Assembly: GCA_030650025.1 (NCBI GenBank)
Contig: JAUSEN010000015.1
Location: forward strand, 13,728 to 77,727
Source: Candidatus Magasanikiibacteriota bacterium
GTDB taxonomy: Bacteria; Patescibacteriota; Patescibacteriia; Magasanikbacterales; GWA2-37-8
Direction of reading: 5' to 3'
DNA: 64,000 nucleotides
Shown one piece after another: positions 2,598 to 35,055 of this stretch. Position 1 is the stretch's first letter; each line of letters begins with the position of its first letter. The notes beneath the pieces are model-generated. The model was not told where the DNA came from, ran no database searches, and saw nothing but the letters and a program-made list of their open reading frames with translations. The translations under genes and the position numbers were made by a program.

Positions 2598-3914
2598 ATG
2601 TTGACCAAACTCAAGCGCCTTGGGCATTGGTTTATTGCCATTGGCGCCTATTGGTTTTATGGCCGCCCTTCGCGCCACCTGGTTGTTATTGGCGTGACTG
2701 GCACTAAAGGCAAGTCTTCCACCTGTAGTTTTATTGCCTCGGTTTTAAAAGCCGGCGGTTTTAAAGTCGGCCTGCTTTCCACCATTGAAATTGAGATCAA
2801 TAATGAAATAATACGAAATAAAAATCAGATGACCATGCTGGGCCGCGGCCAGATTCAAAAATATTTGGCGCGGATGCTTAAGGCCGGTTGCCAATATGCT
2901 GTGATCGAAACTTCGTCCGAGGGCATATTACAGCATCGGCATCTTGGCCTTAATTATGACATCGTTGTGTTTACGAACCTTGGCTCCGAGCATCACGAGC
3001 GCCACGGTGGTTTCCTTAATTTGAAGCGTGACAAGGGCAAAATTTTTGCTGGCCTCGAGCGCTCATTCCCAAAAATTCTGGGCGGTCGCCGGGTTAAAAA
3101 GACCATTATTGCCAATGTGGATAGCTCGGACGCGGAATATTTTCTTAAGTTTTCCGCCGCTGTTAAGCTTGGTTTTTCCATAAAAAATGCCAACCCCGGA
3201 GCCAGCGCCCTGTGTTCTCAAGTATTTACTGCCAAAAATATTAGTAGCCACGACGCGGGCGCTGACTTCGAAGTTTTTGGGAACCGCTATCATCTCGAAA
3301 TGCTTGGCGAATTTAATATTTATAACGCTCTCCCGGCCATTGCGATTGGCGACGCGATAGGGCTCGCTCCTGAACAAATTAAATTGGGGTTAAACAGCGT
3401 CAAACAAATTCTCGGACGCTTACAATTTATTAACGTTGGCCAGCCATTTTCTTTTGTGGTTGATTATGCTCACGAAGTCATAAGTTTAACCGCGCTGTTT
3501 AACGCTCTGCGCCCGCTGGTTAAGCCGCCCGGGAAGCTCATCGGCATAATCGGTTCTGATGGCGGTGGCCGTGATAAATCCAAACGTTTTAACATGGGCG
3601 CTGTCGCGGGAGAGCTTTGTGATTATGTTATCATCACAGATGTCAACCCCTGGGACGAAGATTCAGAGGAAATTGCTCAGATGTTAGCGGCCGGAGTGAG
3701 AAGTTCTGGCCAGGTGGATAATAAAAATTTGCATATAATTATTGATCGGCGTGCGGCAATCAAGGAGTCTTTTAATTTGGCTGGAGTCGGTGGCGTAGTC
3801 GCGCTCACCGCTAAAGGCACTGAAACCGCGATTATTGGTAAAAACGGCCAGCGCCTGGCTTGGGATGATGCTGGTATTGCCACTGAACTCCTGCGTCGTT
3901 TTTTAAACAATTAA
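2598..3914 (+). CDS. Mur ligase family protein (MurE/MurT/CapB-like ATP-dependent amide ligase)
   Basis: P-loop GVTGTKGKSST after an N-terminal hydrophobic segment; central and C-terminal Mur-ligase-like regions; start moved to ATG 2598 to remove overlap with upstream gene. Confidence 0.7.
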   Translation: MLTKLKRLGHWFIAIGAYWFYGRPSRHLVVIGVTGTKGKSSTCSFIASVLKAGGFKVGLLSTIEIEINNEIIRNKNQMTMLGRGQIQKYLARMLKAGCQYAVIETSSEGILQHRHLGLNYDIVVFTNLGSEHHERHGGFLNLKRDKGKIFAGLERSFPKILGGRRVKKTIIANVDSSDAEYFLKFSAAVKLGFSIKNANPGASALCSQVFTAKNISSHDAGADFEVFGNRYHLEMLGEFNIYNALPAIAIGDAIGLAPEQIKLGLNSVKQILGRLQFINVGQPFSFVVDYAHEVISLTALFNALRPLVKPPGKLIGIIGSDGGGRDKSKRFNMGAVAGELCDYVIITDVNPWDEDSEEIAQMLAAGVRSSGQVDNKNLHIIIDRRAAIKESFNLAGVGGVVALTAKGTETAIIGKNGQRLAWDDAGIATELLRRFLNN

Positions 3915-3939
3915 ATTAGCGTTAATGGCATTTTTAGTG

Positions 3940-3945
3940 TATAAT
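3940..3945 (+). promoter_or_regulatory. candidate -10 box (TATAAT) 8 nt before ATG of FtsB-like gene (possible leaderless transcript)
   Basis: gtgTATAATatt immediately upstream of start codon at 3953. Confidence 0.3.
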
Positions 3946-3952
3946 ATTATTT

Positions 3953-4360
3953 ATGCCAATGGGGGAAAAACGACAAACCAAAAATTGGCTGTTAACGCCC
4001 TGGTTTTTAGGCGGGGCGGTTGTGGTTTTTATTTTTTTGGCGATCGGTTTTGGCCGCGCTTGGTATGAACAAAAACAAATTCGCGACGCGATTGCTTCTC
4101 TCGAGCAAGAAGCCGCGCGCCTCGAATCCAAAAAAATTAAAACTCTCGAAGCGCTCAAGTTTTCGGAGTCGGATGATTTTATTGAAGCCAAAGCGCGTCT
4201 CGATCTTGATCTCGTTAAGCCCGGCGAACAAACCGCCATTATTACGCCGCGCGCTGAACCAAGTAACGCCGCGGCGTCTAGACAGAGCGGCCAAAACATG
4301 GTAAACTCTGCTGACCATAAATCCAACCTTTATTTATGGTGGCAGTATTTTTTTAAGTAA
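3953..4360 (+). CDS. septum formation initiator (FtsB/DivIC-like)
   Basis: 135 aa; single N-terminal TM helix followed by coiled-coil (LEQEAARLESKKIKTLEALK), typical architecture and size. Confidence 0.55.
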   Translation: MPMGEKRQTKNWLLTPWFLGGAVVVFIFLAIGFGRAWYEQKQIRDAIASLEQEAARLESKKIKTLEALKFSESDDFIEAKARLDLDLVKPGEQTAIITPRAEPSNAAASRQSGQNMVNSADHKSNLYLWWQYFFK

Positions 4361-4381
4361 TTAATTATTAAAAACAAGAAT

Positions 4382-5374
4382 ATGGATAATCACGTCGTTA
4401 AATCGAATTTAAAAATATTTTTAACTGGTTTTCTTGGCTTTATTGCCGTGGCCGCAGTTTTAGCCGTTGGTTATTTGGCGTTTAGCGCCTACCGTGCCGC
4501 CCCTACTACTGGCGCCGCCGCCTCTGTGGCCAGTTTTCTCAATTTACCGGCTCTAAGCGTCAATGGCCAGTCTGTTTCTTATCGTGATTACATCTCTGAT
4601 ATGAAGGCCATCAGAATGTTTCAAGCCTTTAGCCAAAGCTCCGGCAGCCCCCTTCCGAGTTACACCGATGAGCAATTATCCGACCAAGTTATTAGCCGTT
4701 TAGCGGGCAATGTGGTTATTGAGCAAACCGCGGCTCGGCTCGTGGCTAGTGTCGCCCCCGAGGAAGTAGCCGCTTTAAAAGCCCAGCTTTTGGAAGAATA
4801 CAAAACAGTTGACGCTGTTAACGCCGAACTTATTAAGCGCTATGGTTGGGATTTAAAAACCTACGAACGCAAAGTAATGAATTCTTATCTTTTACAGCAA
4901 AGCGTAGCCGAAAAAATTTCGACTGACCCGGCCGCGCGCTCTAGCTTACTCTCTCAAGCCGAGTCAGTTTTAAAACAAATTAAAGATGGTGCTGATTTTG
5001 CGCTTTTGGCTAAGCAGTATGGCACGGATGCCACTAAAGATCAGGGTGGGGACTTAGGCTGGTTTAAAACCGGGGATATGGTGCCCCAATTCGAAACGGC
5101 GGCCTTTGCCTTGAAACTTAACCAAGTAACCGACCAACCCGTGGAATCGTCTTACGGCTTCCATTTAATAAAATTAACTGGCCGCAAGACTACCACGAGC
5201 AAAGGCGCGGACGGCAAATTAGTCGCGGCCGAAGAGATTCGCGCTAGCCACATCCTGTTTCCGTTTCCGACTTTAGAAAAATATTTAGCCAACGCTCTGA
5301 AGGACGCTAAAATTAAACTTTACATCAAGGTTCACAATCCATTTTTGAGTGTCGCCACTTCCACCCCAGTCTAG
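4382..5374 (+). CDS. membrane-anchored parvulin-type peptidyl-prolyl cis-trans isomerase (SurA/PrsA-like)
   Basis: N-terminal TM helix; PpiC rotamase domain with GGDLGWF and SSYGFHLIKL motifs. Confidence 0.75.
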   Translation: MDNHVVKSNLKIFLTGFLGFIAVAAVLAVGYLAFSAYRAAPTTGAAASVASFLNLPALSVNGQSVSYRDYISDMKAIRMFQAFSQSSGSPLPSYTDEQLSDQVISRLAGNVVIEQTAARLVASVAPEEVAALKAQLLEEYKTVDAVNAELIKRYGWDLKTYERKVMNSYLLQQSVAEKISTDPAARSSLLSQAESVLKQIKDGADFALLAKQYGTDATKDQGGDLGWFKTGDMVPQFETAAFALKLNQVTDQPVESSYGFHLIKLTGRKTTTSKGADGKLVAAEEIRASHILFPFPTLEKYLANALKDAKIKLYIKVHNPFLSVATSTPV

Positions 5375-22430: not shown

Positions 22431-25064
22431 TTATTTTATCACCACCTTGCCTTTTTCAGCCGAAATTAGAGCGGTGTCTCCGGGGTTAATACTGCCGCTG
22501 ATAATTTTTAAAGCCAGCGGGTCTAACATGTCGGTCTGAATCAAGCGCTTCAAGGGCCGCGCGCCATAATCAACATTAAAACCAGCCTTGGTTAAATATT
22601 TTTTGATAGCGGCGTCAAAGTTCAAAGTAATTTTTTGTTCTCCTAAACGCTTAGCGACTTCCGCGAGGCGCAGGTCCACAATTTGTTCAATGTCTTTTTC
22701 GCTCAAGGATTCAAAGACAATCGTCTCGTCCACGCGGTTAAGAAATTCCGGTTTAAAGGTTTCTTTAAGCACCTCCATAATTTGCGAGTTTATCAACTCG
22801 CGTTCTCTCTTACTTGATTTTGATTGGCCGTCCGCGAAACCAAATTCGCCTTTCTTGTGCCGGTCAAGAATTAAGTGGCTCCCCAAATTACTGGTCATAA
22901 TAATAATAGTATTTTTGAAATTTACTTTGCGACCCTTAGCGTCAGTTACATGGCCGTCGTCCAAAATTTGGAGTAGCACGTTAAATACATCCGGGTGCGC
23001 TTTTTCAATTTCGTCAAATAAAATAACCGCGTAAGGCCGGCGCCGCACAATCTCCGTCAGTTGGCCGCCTTCTTCATAGCCCACATACCCCGGGGGCGAG
23101 CCAATAATTTTGGAAACCGCGTGCTTTTCCATATACTCGCTCATATCCACCCGAACCAGAGCGTCTTCCGTGTCAAACATAAATTCCGCCAGTGTTTTCG
23201 CCAGTTCTGTTTTACCAACACCCGTTGGCCCGAGGAAAATAAACGAACCAATCGGGCGCTTCTCTTCGCCAATGCCCGCGCGCGAGCGGCGAATGGCGTT
23301 GGCTACTGCTCGGATCGCTTCCGTTTGCCCCACGACTCGTTTACTTAAAATATCTTCTAACTCTGTTAATTTTTGAGTTTCGGTTTTGAGCATTTTTTGC
23401 ACGGGTATGTGCGTCCAGCGCGCGACCACTCCGGCCACATCCTCATCCGTTACCTCTTCTTTTAAAATTCCATGGCTCTTTTGCATCTGGGTAAGCTTCA
23501 ATTCCGTGTCTTTGAGGTCTCGTAAAATATCGGGAATGCGGCCATAGCGGATCTCGGCCACTTTTTGCAAATCGCCTTTGCGCTCTTCAATCTCGGCCTG
23601 TTGTTTTAATTTGTCAACGTCTTTTTTAAAGGCATGAATTTTTGTGATTAACTCTTTCTCATTCTTCCACTTGGCTTCTAAGCCCAAACTGTTCTCCTGC
23701 AAATTAGCTAGTTCACTTTCGACTTTGGCTAAACGCTCTTTAGAATCCGGGTCAGTTTCTTTGGCCAGGGCGCGTTTTTCGATCTCGAGTTTAGTAGTGG
23801 CGCGCTTCATGCGGTCGAGGTCCTCGGGCATGGAATCAATCTGGAGGCGTAGCGCCGCCGCCGCTTCATCAATTAAATCAATGGCTTTATCCGGTAAAAA
23901 GCGGTCCGTGATATAGCGCTCCGAGAGTTTAACCGCCGCTAATATGGCCGCGTCCGTAATGCGGACGCCGTGGTGAACTTCGTACTTATCTTTAATCCCG
24001 CGTAAAATTGCCACGGTATCGTCGCTTGAGGGCTCGTTGACCATCACGGGCTGGAAGCGGCGCTCGAGCGCGGCGTCTTTTTCAATATGTTTCTGGTATT
24101 CTTTAAGAGTCGTGGCGCCAATCGTATGGAGTTCGCCGCGTGCCAGCATGGGTTTCAGCATGTTCGAGGCGTCAATCGCGCCTTCCGACGCTCCGGCTCC
24201 GACAATCGTATGAAGTTCGTCAATAAATAAAATAATCTTCCCGGCCGAATTATTAATTTCTTTTAAAACCGCCTTCAGGCGTTCTTCAAATTCGCCGCGA
24301 AATTTTGTGCCCGCCACCAAAGCGCCAACATCTAAGGTGATGACGTCTTTATTTTTGAGAGATTCCGGCACATCGCCATTAACAATCCGCTGGGCTAAAC
24401 CTTCCACGATCGCGGTTTTGCCTGTGCCCGGCTCACCAATTAAAACCGGATTATTCTTGGTGCGCCGCGAAAGAATTTGCATGACGCGGCGAATTTCTTC
24501 ATCGCGCCCAATGACCGGATCAATTTTTTCTTTGCGCGCCAGGTCTGTTAAATTTTTGCCATATTTTTCTAAAGCATTGTACTTGGCTTCGGGCTCTGGC
24601 GAATCGACTTTCTGTGACCCTCGGATCGTGGCTAAAATTTTTAGCGCCGCTTCATAATTTACCGCGTAAGTTTGGAGAATCTCGCTGATCGGATTTTTGC
24701 CAGTTAAAAATGCCAAGAGTAAATGTTCGACGCTAATATATTCGTCGCCCATTTTTTTAGCTTCCGCGGCCGCGGTTTGAAATACGTGTACCATTGGCTG
24801 CCCGAGCATTACTTGCCCCATGGCGCTTTGCGACCAACCTTGTTGTTTGGGGAGTTGATTAACGAGATTAGCCACCTGGCTTTCCAAAACTGGCAGGGGA
24901 GTGTTTAATTTTTGTAATAGCGACACCACCACGCTATCCTGATCCTTCAACAGCGCCAAAAATAAATGTGGCGGTTCAACTTGCTGTTGGCCGTTAGTAT
25001 TGGCAATACTGGCCGCGGTCTGAATCGCTTCTTGGGATTTATGCGTAAAATTTTGGGGGATCAT
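22431..25064 (-). CDS. clpB: ATP-dependent chaperone ClpB
   Basis: 877 aa; two AAA+ modules ([29 protein letters not shown]), coiled-coil middle domain, Clp N domain. Confidence 0.95.
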
Positions 25065-25079
25065 ACTTGTTTGTCACTT

Positions 25080-25106
25080 TAGCACTCACATAACTAGAGT
25101 GATAAT
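25080..25106. promoter_or_regulatory. CIRCE-like inverted repeat (putative HrcA operator) upstream of clpB
   Basis: TTAGCACTC-N9-GAGTGATAA, one mismatch from consensus TTAGCACTC-N9-GAGTGCTAA, 16 nt upstream of clpB start. Confidence 0.5.
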
Positions 25107-25141
25107 TTAGTATAGCAATACTTGTTTTTCTTGTCAAATAG

Positions 25142-25150
25142 TGCTAAAAT
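25142..25150 (+). promoter_or_regulatory. candidate extended -10 (TGcTAAAAT) for HAD-GT26 gene
   Basis: TGcTAAAAT about 34 nt upstream of ATG 25184. Confidence 0.3.
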
Positions 25151-25183
25151 AGCTTAAAATAAAAGATAAAATAAGGTAAAATT

Positions 25184-26632
25184 ATGATCAAAAACATCAT
25201 TTTCGACTGGTCTGGAGTCGTCAATAATAACTTCGCACAATCATGTGAAGCGGTTAATTATGTGTTGCGGCATTTTAACGTCCCTGCCATGACTCTCGAG
25301 GAAATCAAGGCCGACTGGATTCAGCCTTATATGCTGTTTTATTCGGCTCGCATTCCGCATTTAGATATCGAAAAAGAAAAAGAATTATTTTATCTTTCTT
25401 ACAACGAAGCTATTAAAACCACTCCCAATACGGCTTTTGCGGGCATGCCCGAGATGTTAAAACTTTTTCAAGCCGCCGGACTAAATATGATAATTATTTC
25501 GAGCGACCATCCGGGGACGCTGGCGGACGATCTCGACAAATTTGGCCTCAACGGGGTTTTTAACGAAGTATTTGCCGATGTTCATGATAAGCGCGTCGGG
25601 CTCCAAGATATAATGACCAAACACAATTTTAAAAATTCTGAAACTGTTTTTATCGGCGACTCGACGCACGAAGTTGAATCCGGCCAAAGCGCCAACATGT
25701 TAACTTGCGCCGTCACCTGGGGGTTCCAAAATAAAGATAAACTACTCGCCGCGCGCCCGGATTTTTTAGCTGAATCAGTCGCGGAATTAAAAAATATTAT
25801 TCTTCACCGCCACGCCCCGGCCACCAATGTTTTGGGTGTTCGCGTCAGCTTGCTCGATCAAACCACTGCTTTGCGGATAGCCAGCAATTATTTAAAATCT
25901 AACTACCAGTATCATATTTTTACCCCGAACCCTGAAATGCTCGTCAAAGCCGCCTCTGATCATTATTTTCGTGACATTCTCAACACCGGCAACCTGAATT
26001 TATGCGATGGCTTCGGCTTGTGGCTGGCGCTCAAGCTATCCTCGTTCAAATTGTCATTTCGACCGGAGTCCGGACAAAGTCCGGACGGAGTGGAGAAATC
26101 TAGTGCGCGTATCACCGGCGTCGATTTCATGTTCGACTTATGCGCTCTCGCCGCGCGCGAGAATAAAAAAATATTTTTACTTGGCTCTGGTAATAGGGAA
26201 GTGGCTAGTAAAACAAAAGACGCTCTGCAATCAAAATTCCCTAAACTTAATATTATTGGTGTTCATCCTTGGCTGACTATCACAGAAGATGTGGTAACTG
26301 GCAAATTGATCTTAAACGAACTCGAAAATACGCGCCTTCTTGAAGAAATCAAATCCGCCAGCCCGGACATTTTATTTGTCGCCTTTGGCATGGGCAAGCA
26401 AGAAAAATGGATTCACGAATATGCCACGCAAATACCAAGCCTTAAAATTGCCATGGGTGTGGGCGGGGCGTTTGATTATATCTCTGGCAAAATTCCCCGC
26501 GCGCCTAGACTAATGCGCAAAGTTGGGCTAGAATGGCTGTATCGTTTAATCCGCGAACCTCGCCGGGCAGGACGGATTTTTAACGCAACTATTAAATTTT
26601 TATACTATGTTGGAAAGGGATCCGGTAAATGA
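25184..26632 (+). CDS. fusion protein: HAD-superfamily hydrolase domain + WecG/TagA/CpsF (GT26) glycosyltransferase domain
   Basis: N-terminus IIFDWSGVV (HAD motif I with DxS), ...FIGDS motif; C-terminal GT26 region (VLGVRVSLLDQTTALRIA, NLCDGFGLWLALKL, IFLLGSGN, MGKQEKWI); contains a 20-aa insert encoded by palindromic element D. Confidence 0.7.
   Translation: MIKNIIFDWSGVVNNNFAQSCEAVNYVLRHFNVPAMTLEEIKADWIQPYMLFYSARIPHLDIEKEKELFYLSYNEAIKTTPNTAFAGMPEMLKLFQAAGLNMIIISSDHPGTLADDLDKFGLNGVFNEVFADVHDKRVGLQDIMTKHNFKNSETVFIGDSTHEVESGQSANMLTCAVTWGFQNKDKLLAARPDFLAESVAELKNIILHRHAPATNVLGVRVSLLDQTTALRIASNYLKSNYQYHIFTPNPEMLVKAASDHYFRDILNTGNLNLCDGFGLWLALKLSSFKLSFRPESGQSPDGVEKSSARITGVDFMFDLCALAARENKKIFLLGSGNREVASKTKDALQSKFPKLNIIGVHPWLTITEDVVTGKLILNELENTRLLEEIKSASPDILFVAFGMGKQEKWIHEYATQIPSLKIAMGVGGAFDYISGKIPRAPRLMRKVGLEWLYRLIREPRRAGRIFNATIKFLYYVGKGSGK
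26048..26103. repeat. palindromic element D (short member of TTGTCATT-terminated family) inserted in-frame in GT26 domain
   Basis: AAATTGTCATTTCGACC + GGAGTCCGGACAAAGTCCGGAC palindromes + GAGAAATCT; shares left terminus and AATCT motif with element A at 49268. Confidence 0.45.
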
Positions 26633-27173
26633 ACAACCAAAAAGACTCATTGTTGAAGTTGGGTCAGGAGGTGTCTCGGCGTTGAGTTTAGGAACACGGG
26701 GTAAAAAAGATGACGAAGTATTTGTTAGTCTTGATTTAGATCCAAATCAGGTTAGAGATGAAAAAGATGCCCATGTAATTGTAGCTGATGGGACAAACTT
26801 ACCGTTTGCCGATAAGTGTGTCGATGAATTAATTTATACTAATGTTTTTGGAGACCACCATCTTCAAAAGCCGGAGAAAATGTTAACAGAGGCGCAACGC
26901 GTGCTTAAACCAGAAGGATTTGTTTTTATTACTGAAACTTATACCCCGAAAAAAATGGCTCAAACACTCGGGGTCTCTTTACGGAGATCTGAATTGGAAA
27001 AACAAGGTCATATGAAATGGGAGTTAATAAAAGTAGACGATAGCGGTTTATTAGATTCTTCCGGATTCATTATTGATAGTTGGTCAGGCGCCCCAGACGA
27101 CGTGGCTCAATTTGAAAGATATTTCGGTAAACCATGGGGCGGTATTGCGATAAAACTAAAGAAAAAAAGTTAA
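26607..27173 (+). CDS. class I SAM-dependent methyltransferase (compositionally atypical)
   Basis: Motif I VEVGSGG, acidic loop, VADGTNLPFADKCVDELI (motif II/III region); lower GC and frequent AGA/GGA codons unlike neighbours; overlaps upstream gene by 26 nt. Confidence 0.6.
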   Translation: MLERDPVNEQPKRLIVEVGSGGVSALSLGTRGKKDDEVFVSLDLDPNQVRDEKDAHVIVADGTNLPFADKCVDELIYTNVFGDHHLQKPEKMLTEAQRVLKPEGFVFITETYTPKKMAQTLGVSLRRSELEKQGHMKWELIKVDDSGLLDSSGFIIDSWSGAPDDVAQFERYFGKPWGGIAIKLKKKS

Positions 27174-27189
27174 TGTATTGTAGTTGTGT

Positions 27190-27210
27190 ATGACCCGTAC
27201 CCGTTTTGCC
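27190..27210 (+). repeat. direct repeat copy 1: duplicated gltX 5' end (ATGACCCGTACCCGTTTTGCC)
   Basis: 19/21 identical to gltX start at 27661-27681; would encode MTRTRFA then diverges. Confidence 0.6.
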
Positions 27211-27213
27211 CTT

Positions 27214-27241
27214 AACCCCCATGGTCAAACCCCCATGGTCA
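27214..27241 (+). repeat. perfect 2 x 14-bp tandem repeat AACCCCCATGGTCA
   Basis: Read directly. Confidence 0.7.
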
Positions 27242-27307
27242 TCTGTACAAAATTTTTTAAGTTTGGTATACTTAAATTGCTGAAATAAGCCAAATAAAAT
27301 TATACAC

Positions 27308-27523
27308 ATGAACTATATTACCATCCCAAAAACCGAGTATCGACAGCTTAAACGGCATGCGAGCGCGTTTCGAAATTTATCGGCGCAAATTTTTAAATCT
27401 GCTCTACGCGACCCCATTGCGGACGTCGTGGAAGATTTTAAAAAGACTGAAAGTTACACGAAAGGGTTTTTACGAGACTTAGAAAGTGGTCTGCGCAAGT
27501 CTTCCTACGCCAAGCGCGTATGA
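27308..27523 (+). CDS. small hypothetical protein (possibly Phd/YefM-like antitoxin fold; weak)
   Basis: 71-aa ORF between the duplicated gltX 5' ends; basic C-terminus; no strong motif. Confidence 0.35.
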   Translation: MNYITIPKTEYRQLKRHASAFRNLSAQIFKSALRDPIADVVEDFKKTESYTKGFLRDLESGLRKSSYAKRV

Positions 27524-27565
27524 TTATTAAGCCGTTGCGCGCAGATTTAAAGGACGTTCTATCTC

Positions 27566-27602
27566 GACGCCAGTTAGAATCGAAATCGGGCGTTATTTTT
27601 TA
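27566..27602 (+). terminator. weak candidate terminator after small ORF
   Basis: GACGCC...GGCGT stem followed by TATTTTTTATT. Confidence 0.3.
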
Positions 27603-27660
27603 TTGATAATGGCATGGCTGAAGTTTTTCAAATCACGAATCACTATAAGCGTTAATAATT

Positions 27661-27681
27661 ATGATCCGTACCCGTTTTGCT
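27661..27681 (+). repeat. direct repeat copy 2 (authentic gltX 5' end ATGATCCGTACCCGTTTTGCT)
   Basis: See copy 1. Confidence 0.6.
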
Positions 27682-29151
27682 CCGAGCCCGACTGGTTGGT
27701 TGCATGTGGGAGGCCTCCGTACCGCCCTCTATGCTTATTTAATTGCCAAAAAACAGGGCGGGCAGTTTTTGGTGCGTATCGAGGACACAGACCGCGAACG
27801 ATTTGTAGAAACCGGCACGCTCAATATTTTAAAATCTCTCTCTTGGGCAGGGGTAGTTCCGGACGAAGGCGTAGTGCTTGATGCTGGCGGAAAAATCACT
27901 CAAAAAGGCGATTTAGGGCCGTATATACAGTCCGAACGTCTAGCCATATACAAAAAATACGCCGCCGAGCTCCTCGATAAAAAATCGGCTTATTATTGTT
28001 TTTGTACGAGCGAACGACTCGAAGAATTACGTAAGCAGCAAGAATTAAATAAATTGCCTGGCGGCTATGATGGCGAATGCTTAAAAAATTCTACTCCAGA
28101 AGACGCCAAGAAAAGGGTGGCGGCGGGTGAGAAGCATGTAGTGCGTCTCAAGATGCCTAAAGACGGAGAAACAGTGTGGCATGATTTAGTTCGCGGCGAA
28201 GTCAGTTTTAAGAATGCTCTAGTGGACGACCAAGTTTTAATTAAATCCGATGGTTTCCCCACGTATCACTTGGCGGTGGTTGTTGATGATCATGAGATGC
28301 GAATTACCCACGTTATTCGCGGTGAAGAATGGGTTTCGAGCACGCCCAAGCATATTCAGCTGTATAAATATTTTGGTTGGGAAATGCCGGAATTTGCCCA
28401 TTTGCCGCTTCTTCTTAACCCCGATAAATCCAAGTTAAGCAAGCGCCAGGGCGATGTCGCGGTGGAGGATTATAACAATAAAGGATACTTGCCCGAAGCC
28501 CTTATAAATTTCGTCGCCTTTTTAGGCTGGAACCCGGGTACGAATAAAGAAATATACTCACTATCAGAGTTAGTACAGGATTTTAGTTTAGAAAAAGTTA
28601 GTAAATCCGGGGCGGTGTTTAATCTGGAGAAATTAAATTGGTTTAATAAAGAGTATTTAAAAAATTATTCTGGAGAAAAATTAGCTGAATTAGTTCCAGA
28701 ATTTTTTGTTAACAACGATTTTTATCATGATTTTACAGAAAAGTTAGCTGATAAAAATTTTTTTGGCAAAATTCTTGATCTTGAAAAAGAACGAGTTACG
28801 ACGCTCGCGGAATTGCCCGCAGCCGTCAAGTTTATTTTTAAAATTCCGGAATATTTGCCAGAAATTTTAGTGTGGCGTAAAGGCACTCTGGACGAAGTAA
28901 AAATAATTTTACCAGAATTAAAAAATTACTTAGAGAATTTTGAAGTCGGGGAGTGGAATGAAAAAAATTTAGAAGCAAAAATAAAAATTTGGCTTGAATC
29001 CAAAAAATACTCTACCGGATCGGTTTTGTGGCCTCTGCGCGTAGCGCTTAGTGGCCAGCAGAACAGTCCCGGGCCATTTGAGATTGCCGCGGTATTAGGC
29101 AAGGCAGAATCACTGGCGCGTCTAGATTTAGCTATCAGAAAACTGAAATAA
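27661..29151 (+). CDS. gltX: glutamyl-tRNA synthetase
   Basis: Class I HIGH region RFAPSPTGWLHVGG, KMSKS equivalent KLSKRQG, anticodon-binding C-terminal domain. Confidence 0.92.
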   Translation: MIRTRFAPSPTGWLHVGGLRTALYAYLIAKKQGGQFLVRIEDTDRERFVETGTLNILKSLSWAGVVPDEGVVLDAGGKITQKGDLGPYIQSERLAIYKKYAAELLDKKSAYYCFCTSERLEELRKQQELNKLPGGYDGECLKNSTPEDAKKRVAAGEKHVVRLKMPKDGETVWHDLVRGEVSFKNALVDDQVLIKSDGFPTYHLAVVVDDHEMRITHVIRGEEWVSSTPKHIQLYKYFGWEMPEFAHLPLLLNPDKSKLSKRQGDVAVEDYNNKGYLPEALINFVAFLGWNPGTNKEIYSLSELVQDFSLEKVSKSGAVFNLEKLNWFNKEYLKNYSGEKLAELVPEFFVNNDFYHDFTEKLADKNFFGKILDLEKERVTTLAELPAAVKFIFKIPEYLPEILVWRKGTLDEVKIILPELKNYLENFEVGEWNEKNLEAKIKIWLESKKYSTGSVLWPLRVALSGQQNSPGPFEIAAVLGKAESLARLDLAIRKLK

Positions 29152-29170
29152 ACCTGATATTTTTAGTAGT

Positions 29171-29194
29171 AGGGGCATGATATATCATGCCCCT
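29171..29194. repeat. perfect 24-bp palindrome AGGGGCATGATATATCATGCCCCT downstream of gltX
   Basis: Read directly; preceded by ATATTTTTA; no clear U-tract on either side. Confidence 0.5.
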
Positions 29195-29238
29195 ACGGTA
29201 CGCTTTCAAGCCATAAAATATTATGCTATAATACCGCC

Positions 29239-34086: not shown

Positions 34087-35055
34087 TTATTTTCCGCCGC
34101 GATGAAATTTTTTGTGAATATCACGCAGTTTTTTATTGGTAACGTGAGTGTAAATTTGGGTAGTGGCAATGTTTTTGTGGCCGAGCAGTTCTTGCACCGA
34201 GCGCATGTCCGCGCCCTGATCTAATAAATCGGTAGCAAAACTGTGGCGGAGAGTGTGGGGGGTGGCATCCACTGGCAAGCCGGCCATCGTCGCATATTTA
34301 CGTACTAAACGTTCCACCGAACGAGGTGTTAAGCGATGTTCTTTATCTTCGGTGTTATTTTTTTGGTAATTAATAAAAAGCGGGGGATATAAATCATTTT
34401 TTCGTGTTTCTAGATATTTAGCCAACCAACCCAGGGCACGCTCGGAGAAATAAACTGTGCGGGTACTGCCGCCTTTACCGTTAATTGCGATTTCTAGATC
34501 TTTAATTTTTTTATTTATAATATTTTTTATGTCAAACGACCTTATATTAAGCGACGTTAATTCCGACACGCGCATGCCAGTAGAAAAGAGGGTTTCGAGT
34601 ATAGTTCGGTCTCGGAGACCGTCGGGAGTGGCCGTATCCGGCATATGCACAAGCTTTTCTACTTGATCAAAGCTCAAAAATTTGATAGTTTTGTCTTTGT
34701 CAGTTAGCTTCGGGAGCTTAATTTTGTCACTGGGAAGGCACTGGATATCGCGTTCTGTAAAGTATGCTAACAGGTTGCGCAGGGCTATCAAGTAGTAGTT
34801 CTGAGTCGTTTTTTTAATATAACGGCCTTTAGAGTCTTTTTTGCGAGAAAGATATAGGCGGTAGTTCCAAATCTGCTCCTGGGTCAATTCCTGGGGTTTT
34901 AGGCTCTCTAGGCGGTTATTTTTAAGCCAACCAGTAAACATCTTGAGAAAATTATCATAATTCCTGGAAGTTACCGGGCTTAAACCCTTCTCAACCTCGC
35001 AATAATCAAGAAAGTCCCGTATATGCTTAATGATTGTGGTATTGGAGCGTTTCAT
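34087..35055 (-). CDS. xerD: tyrosine site-specific recombinase XerC/XerD family
   Basis: Catalytic box HTLRHSFATDLLDQGADMRSVQELLGHKNIATTQIYTHV, R...K...HxxR...Y residues. Confidence 0.85.
   Translation of the reverse strand: MKRSNTTIIKHIRDFLDYCEVEKGLSPVTSRNYDNFLKMFTGWLKNNRLESLKPQELTQEQIWNYRLYLSRKKDSKGRYIKKTTQNYYLIALRNLLAYFTERDIQCLPSDKIKLPKLTDKDKTIKFLSFDQVEKLVHMPDTATPDGLRDRTILETLFSTGMRVSELTSLNIRSFDIKNIINKKIKDLEIAINGKGGSTRTVYFSERALGWLAKYLETRKNDLYPPLFINYQKNNTEDKEHRLTPRSVERLVRKYATMAGLPVDATPHTLRHSFATDLLDQGADMRSVQELLGHKNIATTQIYTHVTNKKLRDIHKKFHRGGK

Follow-up and report, generated by a model that had tools for sequence, protein, structure and literature searches.

A decayed, putative toxin-antitoxin cassette and the probable scar of its insertion at the start of gltX in a Candidatus Magasanikbacteria genome

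Results

Anatomy of the gltX start

The stretch of DNA analysed here (the window, 64 kb) comes from an uncultured member of Candidatus Magasanikbacteria (Patescibacteria, also known as the Candidate Phyla Radiation, CPR), and our subject is the start of its gltX gene, which encodes glutamate--tRNA ligase (GluRS) and whose first bases occur twice, with the remains of a small cassette between the two copies. The Logan assembly of run SRR13727527, which was made independently, agrees base for base with window positions 24051-29195, so the arrangement is not the peculiarity of one assembler. Read from 5' to 3', the locus contains the following features.

25184-26632, + strand: resident gene for a fusion of a HAD phosphatase with a WecG/TagA/CpsF glycosyltransferase, 482 aa (Pfam PF13419, 2e-19; PF03808, 1.8e-48)
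26607-27173, + strand: small class I S-adenosylmethionine (SAM) methyltransferase of the Methyltransf_11 type, 188 aa, apparently resident (Pfam PF08241, 5e-12)
27189-27241, + strand: left, apparently dead copy of the gltX 5' end, with a pseudo-start ATG at 27190, reading MTRTRFALNPHG...
27214-27241, + strand: perfect 2 x 14-bp tandem duplication of AACCCCCATGGTCA, within the left copy
27242-27307, + strand: left end of the cassette, with a predicted sigma-70-like promoter found by promoter scan (TGTACA-17-TATACT, TG-extended, 27244-27272)
27308-27523, + strand: intact antitoxin-like gene of an unannotated family, 71 aa (homologues at 54-87% identity)
27520-27656, + strand: putative toxin pseudogene, similar to the YoeB/RelE/HigB superfamily (translation, DNA alignment to intact cassettes, tblastn)
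27660-27696, + strand: live, right-hand copy of the repeated segment, at the functional gltX start (repeat alignment)
27661-29151, + strand: intact gltX, 496 aa (Pfam PF00749, 7e-103; PF19269, 3e-30; full length)

The first-pass annotation of this DNA had noticed that the first 21 nt of gltX recur upstream of the gene, and this repeat proves to be both genuine and longer than reported. ATGACCCGTACCCGTTTTGCC at 27190-27210 agrees with the true gltX start (27661-27681) at 19/21 positions, and at up to 3 mismatches the 64 kb contain these two sites only, where shuffled sequences lead one to expect 0. The similarity extends to 37 nt, 29 of which are the same in 27189-27225 and 27660-27696 (z = 7.6 against shuffles). 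The pseudo-start lies 16 nt after the methyltransferase stop codon, and in two related loci that have a homologue of the methyltransferase gene in the same slot, L057 and L054, gltX begins at -4 nt and +10 nt relative to the stop of that homologue; given this match in position, the left copy would seem to occupy the ancestral gltX start. Moreover, at its codons 8, 9 and 11, Leu, Asn and His have taken the place of the Pro, Ser and Thr that are invariant in the GluRS motif RFAPSPTG. The left copy thus appears to be a dead remnant of the original gltX start. A second copy of a relative's own gltX start was found in 0/9 relatives, and in several relatives the upstream gene abuts gltX, in agreement with the earlier suggestion of an insertion or recombination scar that kept a pseudo-start.

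A perfect 14-bp tandem repeat had also been reported between the two copies. The repeat is there, but it lies inside the left copy, with a unit (AACCCCCATGGTCA) that derives from a stretch matching AGCCCGACTGGT in the live gene, and is a slippage duplication within the dead copy. The search for this 14-mer elsewhere that had been proposed returned no match among ~90 related loci, and together with the window search it rules out both the ATGACCCGTACCCGTTTTGCC 21-mer and the 14-mer as dispersed genome motifs. We also considered extending the remnant to ~45 nt through CATCTGTAC, read as His-Leu-Tyr, and rejected this, as TGTACAAAATTT aligns with the region upstream of the cassette at locus L059. 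No significant RNA fold was predicted for 27174-27310 (z = -1.2). Scanned against Rfam at E <= 1, positions 26400-27900 gave a spurious snoRNA match alone, with no riboswitch, T-box or leader structure.

The live gene encodes a protein with 62-70% identity to other Magasanikbacteria GluRS. Within it, codons ~300-450 (window 28560-29010) have a GC content of 0.27-0.36 and a GC content at third codon positions (GC3) of 0.20-0.30, against a GC3 of ~0.46 in the 5' two-thirds, and a weaker dip is seen in the same GluRS domain of relatives; relaxed constraint or an old recombination breakpoint could account for it. A chimeric gltX was considered and set aside, since residues 1-300 and 301-496, compared separately against 119 homologues, revealed no outlier donor.

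A putative toxin-antitoxin cassette between the two copies

The insert between the gltX copies measures ~0.43 kb, from about 27242 to 27659, and consists of a promoter, an antitoxin-like gene and a broken toxin gene. Its left end (27242-27307) is similar to the regions upstream of the L058 and L059 cassettes, and homologous cassettes all have TTGACN-N17-TATAAT 35-70 nt 5' of the antitoxin ATG. The 71-aa reading frame at 27308-27523 had been regarded as an orphan; the frame itself is confirmed, but it is no orphan, since relatives are present in 8 homologous proteins, 24 metagenome loci and further Logan contigs (~30 homologous loci). Wherever the contig extends far enough, an 82-83-aa gene follows directly 3' of the 71-aa gene, usually with an ATGA overlap. 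Comparison of the 71-aa gene with its L058 homologue gives a ratio of nonsynonymous to synonymous substitution (dN/dS) of 0.03, with saturated synonymous sites (proportion of synonymous differences, pS, 0.72), which suggests strong purifying selection on the antitoxin. Pfam, NCBIfam, PHROG and PDB sequence searches placed it in none of the known antitoxin or DNA-binding families (Phd/YefM, ribbon-helix-helix (RHH), helix-turn-helix, AbrB), and although it is predicted to be helical, with a model confidence (pLDDT) of 84, Foldseek returned no significant fold match (best E-value 5.4). Neither PHROGs nor PADLOC was informative on the small open reading frames (ORFs).

The partner gene had escaped the first-pass annotation. 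Its start overlaps the antitoxin stop as ATGA at 27520-27523, and it begins MIIKPLRADLKDVLSRRQLE... and then stops; alignment to intact cassettes indicates an internal loss of ~112 nt (codons ~23-52) together with a frameshift. In line with this, tblastn recovers residues 1-19/22 and residues 53-82 in two different frames, the second stretch ending in RALFFIDNGMAEVFQITNHYKR* at 27654-27656, only 4 nt before the gltX ATG. A functional toxin is therefore absent from this locus, given the internal deletion and frameshift. Intact members of the family form a tight group (alignment A3, 74% mean column identity), and three of them match HigB-like, YoeB and ParE models at E 1.7e-4 to 0.08 and TIGR02116 (Txe/YoeB) at 9e-5 to 3e-4, all below curated cut-offs. 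A profile of the family also matches the YoeB structure in PDB entry 7v5y (E 0.0026 over residues 7-77). On the strength of these likenesses we read the 71-aa/82-aa pair as a putative type II toxin-antitoxin module, whose toxin would belong to the RelE superfamily and whose antitoxin would represent a family not yet described. No integrase or recombinase is encoded in the 471-nt interval, which holds the toxin-antitoxin genes only; there are no inverted repeats in 27100-27800 and no second copy of the cassette in the window.

Copies of the cassette at other loci

The pair occurs in unrelated contexts, among them a sugar operon, the region upstream of smpB, and the space between grpE and dnaK. 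The last of these, L066 (Ga0180009_10003731, 3422-4002), resembles the gltX locus most in its flanks: a cassette of the same family stands between 48-nt direct repeats (3422-3469 and 3955-4002, 47/48 identical) that cover the stop codon of grpE, the spacer and the ATGA of dnaK, so that the left copy retains the grpE stop and the right copy the dnaK start. In the left copy the dnaK ATGA has become TTGA and forms part of the cassette -35 box, while the right copy starts within the last toxin codons, with microhomology AAAAGTTAA. The likeness of L066 suggests that two independent insertions, there and at gltX, each duplicated tens of bases and preserved the flanking essential genes.

In a sister clade, the cassettes at L085 (235-807), L086 (2749-3316) and L078 (598-1161), and in part those at L080 and L084, are bounded by 17-28-nt terminal inverted repeats (AAATTTTGGCCTTTTCC / GGAAAAGGCCAAAAYTT; ~28 nt in L080) that lie ~530 nt apart. 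Such repeats were found at neither the window nor the L066 copy. The sister-clade unit looks like a MITE (miniature inverted-repeat transposable element) carrying the toxin-antitoxin pair as cargo, with no transposase identified.

Toxin decay was seen at other loci as well: in L072 (568-718) toxin codons ~28-58 have been deleted independently, a loss similar to that in the window copy, and in L078 (893-1136) the toxin is independently frameshifted, with the antitoxin intact in both.

Two further direct repeats were considered as target duplications. The one in L063-L065 was rejected, because it is an inter-cassette array repeat present 4-5 times per locus, and the one in L078 is ambiguous, consisting of GC-rich elements of the repetitive extragenic palindromic (REP) type. 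The loci L063-L065 contain, at ~2800-5000, an array of small toxin-antitoxin-like cassettes that includes the window cassette family; some of its ORFs are, by the look of their sequences, candidate HicA/HicB pairs. Between these cassettes lies a conserved 36-39-nt element, GTTTTTTTATTRAAAAATAGAGTTGACCCCATT, and the fact that L063 and L064 diverge right after one copy of it suggests cassette shuffling at these repeats. The REP-like repeats of L078 (CCTACCGGCAGGCAGG and variants, 508-549 and 1189-1272) stand on both sides of the element in an AT-rich contig.

Synteny of the WecG-gltX neighbourhood

Across Magasanikbacteria the order ClpB (minus strand), WecG, gltX, M23 peptidase is syntenic, and the WecG-gltX neighbourhood is kept in L001, L002 and L053-L057. 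What lies between WecG and gltX differs as follows.

L001, L002, L055/56: no gene; WecG abuts or overlaps gltX
L057 (with a HAD-WecG fusion like that of the window): a 199-aa gene, with overlaps of 41 nt (WecG) and 4 nt (gltX)
L054: a 177-aa gene, overlapping WecG by 14 nt and ending 10 nt before gltX
L053: two genes, one of 184 aa that has no match in Pfam, the other with a NUDIX domain

In both L057 and L054 the M23 peptidase gene follows 3' of gltX. The genes between in these two loci are homologous to the window methyltransferase (L057, 36% over 128 aa, E 4e-19; L054, 41% over 111 aa, E 8e-24), and the homologue is absent from the slot in L001, L002, L053 and L055. It had been expected that an empty site would show the upstream gene followed directly by gltX; this arrangement is seen in L001, L002 and L055/56, but in L054 and L057 a methyltransferase homologue stands between the two. 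Another family member, P0016, is extended at its C-terminus by a stretch that corresponds to gltX translated in a different frame; it too abuts gltX.

The methyltransferase gene appears to be resident

The coordinates of the methyltransferase gene, its 26-nt overlap with the HAD-WecG gene and its unusual composition were all reported correctly in the first-pass annotation. With a GC content of 0.395 and a GC3 of 0.298 it is the lowest among the 58 gene-like ORFs of the window that served as baseline (mean GC3 0.461, sd 0.043; z = -3.8), AGA makes up 4/8 of its Arg codons against 10% window-wide, and GGA 5/16 of its Gly codons against 13%; its codon-usage log-likelihood is unremarkable (z = -0.95). 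These features had been taken to mark the gene as imported cargo, which the comparison with relatives does not support. The same-slot homologues are AT-rich as well, with a GC3 of 0.271 in L054 (0.42-0.48 in neighbouring genes) and 0.302 in L057 (0.39 in neighbouring genes), so that low GC characterises the gene family as such and is no sign of recent arrival. Moreover, the three lineages (window, L054, L057) are nearly equidistant, at 68-72% pairwise identity for GluRS and 36-41% for the methyltransferase, and these near-equal distances fit vertical descent of a fast-evolving gene. Both gltX-start repeats lie 3' of the gene and flank the region of the 71-aa ORF, not the methyltransferase. It thus appears to be a resident, fast-evolving gene, AT-rich wherever found, that stands outside the insertion.

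Closest to the window protein within the family is P0002, with 49% identity along its full length, and its gene is non-syntenic. In its contig (L089, 1295-2238; Logan SRR32573210) the P0002 gene lies 3' of an RHH-like 71-aa gene, both with a GC3 of 0.28-0.32, beside a gene with a GC3 of 0.66; the family is AT-rich in every host seen. The methyltransferase family may move occasionally.

It had further been suggested that the gene might encode a modification methyltransferase with the small ORF as its partner. The domain searches favour another assignment: Methyltransf_11 is the best Pfam match (5e-12), ahead of weaker type 25/31 and UbiE matches, NCBIfam returns sub-threshold matches to small-molecule methyltransferases alone, and a profile of 34 family members finds type-11 methyltransferases and TrmB in the PDB. 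An AlphaFold model (pLDDT 90) has its nearest folds in Trm9, CypM, Hvo_0019, Bud23 and uncharacterised type-11 methyltransferases (template modelling (TM) score ~0.55). Neither Pfam, NCBIfam, PDB profile nor fold search gave a match to a DNA-methyltransferase family or fold, and no restriction endonuclease or specificity gene adjoins the gene, whose neighbours are WecG, the toxin-antitoxin remnant and gltX. A weak PADLOC match to mad2 (5.9e-6) was put down to the shared Rossmann fold. Sequence and model together predict a generic class I SAM enzyme that does not modify DNA, and its 71-aa neighbour is antitoxin-like, with its own partner in the broken toxin gene.

Similar to type-11 SAM methyltransferases (the Trm112-partnered Trm9/Bud23 and TrmB-like enzymes), which provide its best fold and profile matches, the protein has a Rossmann fold, a motif I (VEVGSGG) and an acidic loop; unlike them, its C-terminal half is family-specific, and it shares 12-18% identity with solved structures at the TM score given above. 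The adjacency to gltX kept across relatives is a lead, and a lead only, on its substrate.

Discussion

Taken as a whole, the feature at the gltX start appears to be a decayed chromosomal toxin-antitoxin cassette with the scar of its arrival, an ordinary evolutionary scar, and we think it reasonably probable that it arose by insertion of the cassette at the start of gltX, with the methyltransferase gene already resident, and by later decay. The ancestral operon would have run HAD-WecG, methyltransferase, gltX, M23 peptidase, with gltX a few bases past the methyltransferase stop. Into this a self-contained type II cassette of ~0.5 kb, comprising a promoter, the 71-aa antitoxin and an 82-aa YoeB/RelE-like toxin, would have landed ~38 nt into gltX. 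The opening ~38 nt of the gene were presumably duplicated or re-supplied on the right side, so as to leave gltX intact 4 nt past the end of the toxin gene. Left behind upstream, the original start would have been a dead fragment, and would then have gained substitutions at invariant GluRS positions and the 14-bp slippage duplication, and later the toxin would have lost ~112 nt and become a pseudogene, with the intact antitoxin left under purifying selection. The anatomy of the locus, its synteny, the cassette with its many contexts and the decay of the toxin are observed; we infer the order of events, as we do the route of the duplication, a staggered or microhomology-mediated insertion with a long target duplication. 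The duplications at gltX and L066 fit either insertion by way of a long staggered cut or a template switch, or illegitimate events that are rare and have passed the filter of selection. That the essential gltX survived an insertion into its coding start would be owed to the duplication of its 5' end.

Several observations weigh against this account. A clean target duplication is found at just 2 of ~20 independent cassette sites, and no enzyme that makes 38-48-bp duplications has been identified. The divergence between the gltX repeats is uneven, with 2/21 and then 6/16 differences (Fisher p = 0.055), as would fit a hybrid origin. At L058 (contig SRR22388163_451568), the most similar cassette lies directly 3' of WecG and lacks the methyltransferase, which allows the reverse order of arrival, and a rough neighbour-joining tree joins the window methyltransferase to P0002, outside the syntenic clade. 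Moreover, a genome-collection scan and a search of 5.8 billion proteins found no relative above 70% GltX identity (the best public match has 70%); with no close public relative, public data hold no true empty-site allele and the event cannot be dated.

That reverse order is the most probable of the alternatives, although we consider it unlikely. An L058-like ancestor would have had WecG, an old cassette and gltX, and the methyltransferase together with the first ~20-40 nt of gltX would have been imported later from a donor with the order WecG-methyltransferase-gltX, through one crossover in WecG and another in an old, decayed gltX remnant. The methyltransferase and the pseudo-start would on this view be the later arrivals, as the first-pass annotation had supposed for the methyltransferase. 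L058 indeed has WecG, a 118-nt spacer and an antitoxin with 87% amino acid identity, and a stretch in the spacer, equally far from the antitoxin ATG, bears a marginal resemblance to the gltX 5' end (p ~0.03). The unevenness of the repeat divergence would suit such an import, as would the standing of the window methyltransferase as a compositional outlier and its closeness to a homologue from a non-syntenic site, which itself has a foreign look within its contig. However, a low GC3 is family-wide and found in syntenic copies too, so that composition does not discriminate, and L054 and L057 show the same overlap of the methyltransferase gene with WecG and the same spacing between it and the ancestral start of gltX. 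L058 is also distant (WecG 52% identity), its contig stops before showing whether gltX follows, its gltX-like remnant is barely significant, and two events are needed where insertion of the cassette needs one. We give less credence to homology-facilitated illegitimate recombination, by which DNA with cassette and gltX, taken up from a related bacterium, would have undergone a homologous crossover within gltX and an illegitimate join ~38 nt into the gltX of the recipient, the two repeat copies then being donor and recipient alleles and not a target-site duplication; this we regard as quite improbable. The copies do differ at third codon positions besides the decayed ones, the right junction of L066 shows the microhomology AAAAGTTAA, and GC3 falls within gltX between its 5' two-thirds and codons ~300-450. 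Yet no GluRS is unusually close to residues 1-300 (maximum 79%, no outlier), the C-terminal GC dip recurs, more weakly, in relatives, and the L066 repeat, at 47/48 and including non-coding spacer, looks like a true duplication.

Two other explanations carry little weight with us. It is very improbable that the upstream copy is functional, as a leader or upstream ORF or as an operator of the cassette promoter, or that the whole arrangement is an assembly artefact. A 32-codon ORF does run from 27190, the first 21 nt are better kept than the next 16, and the tandem repeats, which contain CCATGG, lie just 5' of the -35 box; against a function stand the lack of an Rfam match and of a significant fold, the absence of the 14-mer 5' of every other cassette copy, and the non-conservative changes and frame-shifting duplication in the remnant, and against an artefact the identical independent assembly. 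We see hardly any chance that the locus is a foreign islet at the gltX start made up of a DNA-modification methyltransferase and a small partner protein. The atypical composition and codon usage of the methyltransferase and the weak mad2 match point that way, but relatives hold syntenic homologues of the gene, the repeats do not flank it, it has no match to a DNA-methyltransferase family or fold, and the small ORF is one half of a putative toxin-antitoxin pair that is distinct from it and dispersed widely.

The cassette is in many respects similar to known type II modules with RelE/YoeB/HigB/ParE toxins, such as YefM-YoeB and Axe-Txe. The antitoxin comes first, the genes overlap as ATGA behind a sigma-70-like promoter, the 82-aa basic toxin aligns with YoeB (PDB ID 7v5y), HigB-like and ParE models, and the pair shows a scattered, context-independent spread with frequent toxin decay to a lone antitoxin. 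It differs from them in that its toxin matches lie below curated thresholds, its antitoxin has no known family and the toxin of the window is nonfunctional, and the module is predicted from sequence.

Integrative elements are known that insert into the ends of protein genes and restore them (e14 and phage 21 in icd, and elements at the 5' end of dusA), leaving a partial duplicate. Similar to these, the insert at gltX is flanked by direct repeats of the target end, with the gene intact and a truncated pseudo-copy at the other junction; unlike them, it is only ~0.43 kb long and has no integrase, and the repeat differs from site to site (gltX; the grpE-dnaK spacer in L066). Because its sequence differs per site, the repeat is likely target-derived and not an element-borne att site. 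Members of the IS1634/IS1549 group make unusually long and variable target duplications, and MITE-like elements that carry cargo are also known. The cassette shares with them direct repeats of tens of bp around a small mobile unit, and in the sister clade inverted repeats; however, the window and L066 copies lack terminal inverted repeats and a linked transposase, and the junction microhomology in L066 points to illegitimate recombination. A literature search for toxin-antitoxin cassettes with target-site duplications returned generic mobile-element papers only.

A bolder version of the insertion account would make the pair an autonomous mobile unit of CPR genomes, ~0.5 kb in size, that lands beside or within essential genes, whose 38-48-bp target duplications regenerate gene ends and which is packaged between inverted repeats in the sister clade. 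We think this distinctly unlikely, but were it so, it would amount to an undescribed route of toxin-antitoxin cassette mobility, and one that places the essential genes gltX and dnaK under a toxin-antitoxin promoter. Short of that, the long duplications at gltX and L066, together with the inverted-repeat copies of the sister clade, offer a lead on how small cassettes move in CPR genomes, which have few recognisable mobile elements. At the locus itself, gltX now stands directly behind a predicted toxin-antitoxin promoter and a lone antitoxin. For annotation, the methyltransferase would be neither foreign nor DNA-modifying, 27520-27656 a toxin pseudogene, and the 71-aa 'hypothetical protein' the antitoxin-like half of a widespread, unnamed toxin-antitoxin pair.

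Other features of the region

The genes around the locus encode enzymes of the cell wall and an Xer-type recombinase, the latter syntenic, and none of them is a mobile-element gene; the nearest tyrosine recombinase gene, at 34090-35055, is syntenic in relatives. Among the loci examined, the HAD-WecG fusion occurs in the window (25184-26632) and in L057 (1970-3445) only. One protein of 747 aa, P0172, carries the annotation of a WecG-GluRS fusion, a reflection of the close packing of WecG and gltX in this clade. Finally, a perfect 14+14-nt palindrome, GTAGGGGCATGATA/TATCATGCCCCTAC, lies at 29169-29196, 18 nt past the gltX stop, and probably forms a hairpin of the terminator type, situated between gltX and the gene for the M23 peptidase.

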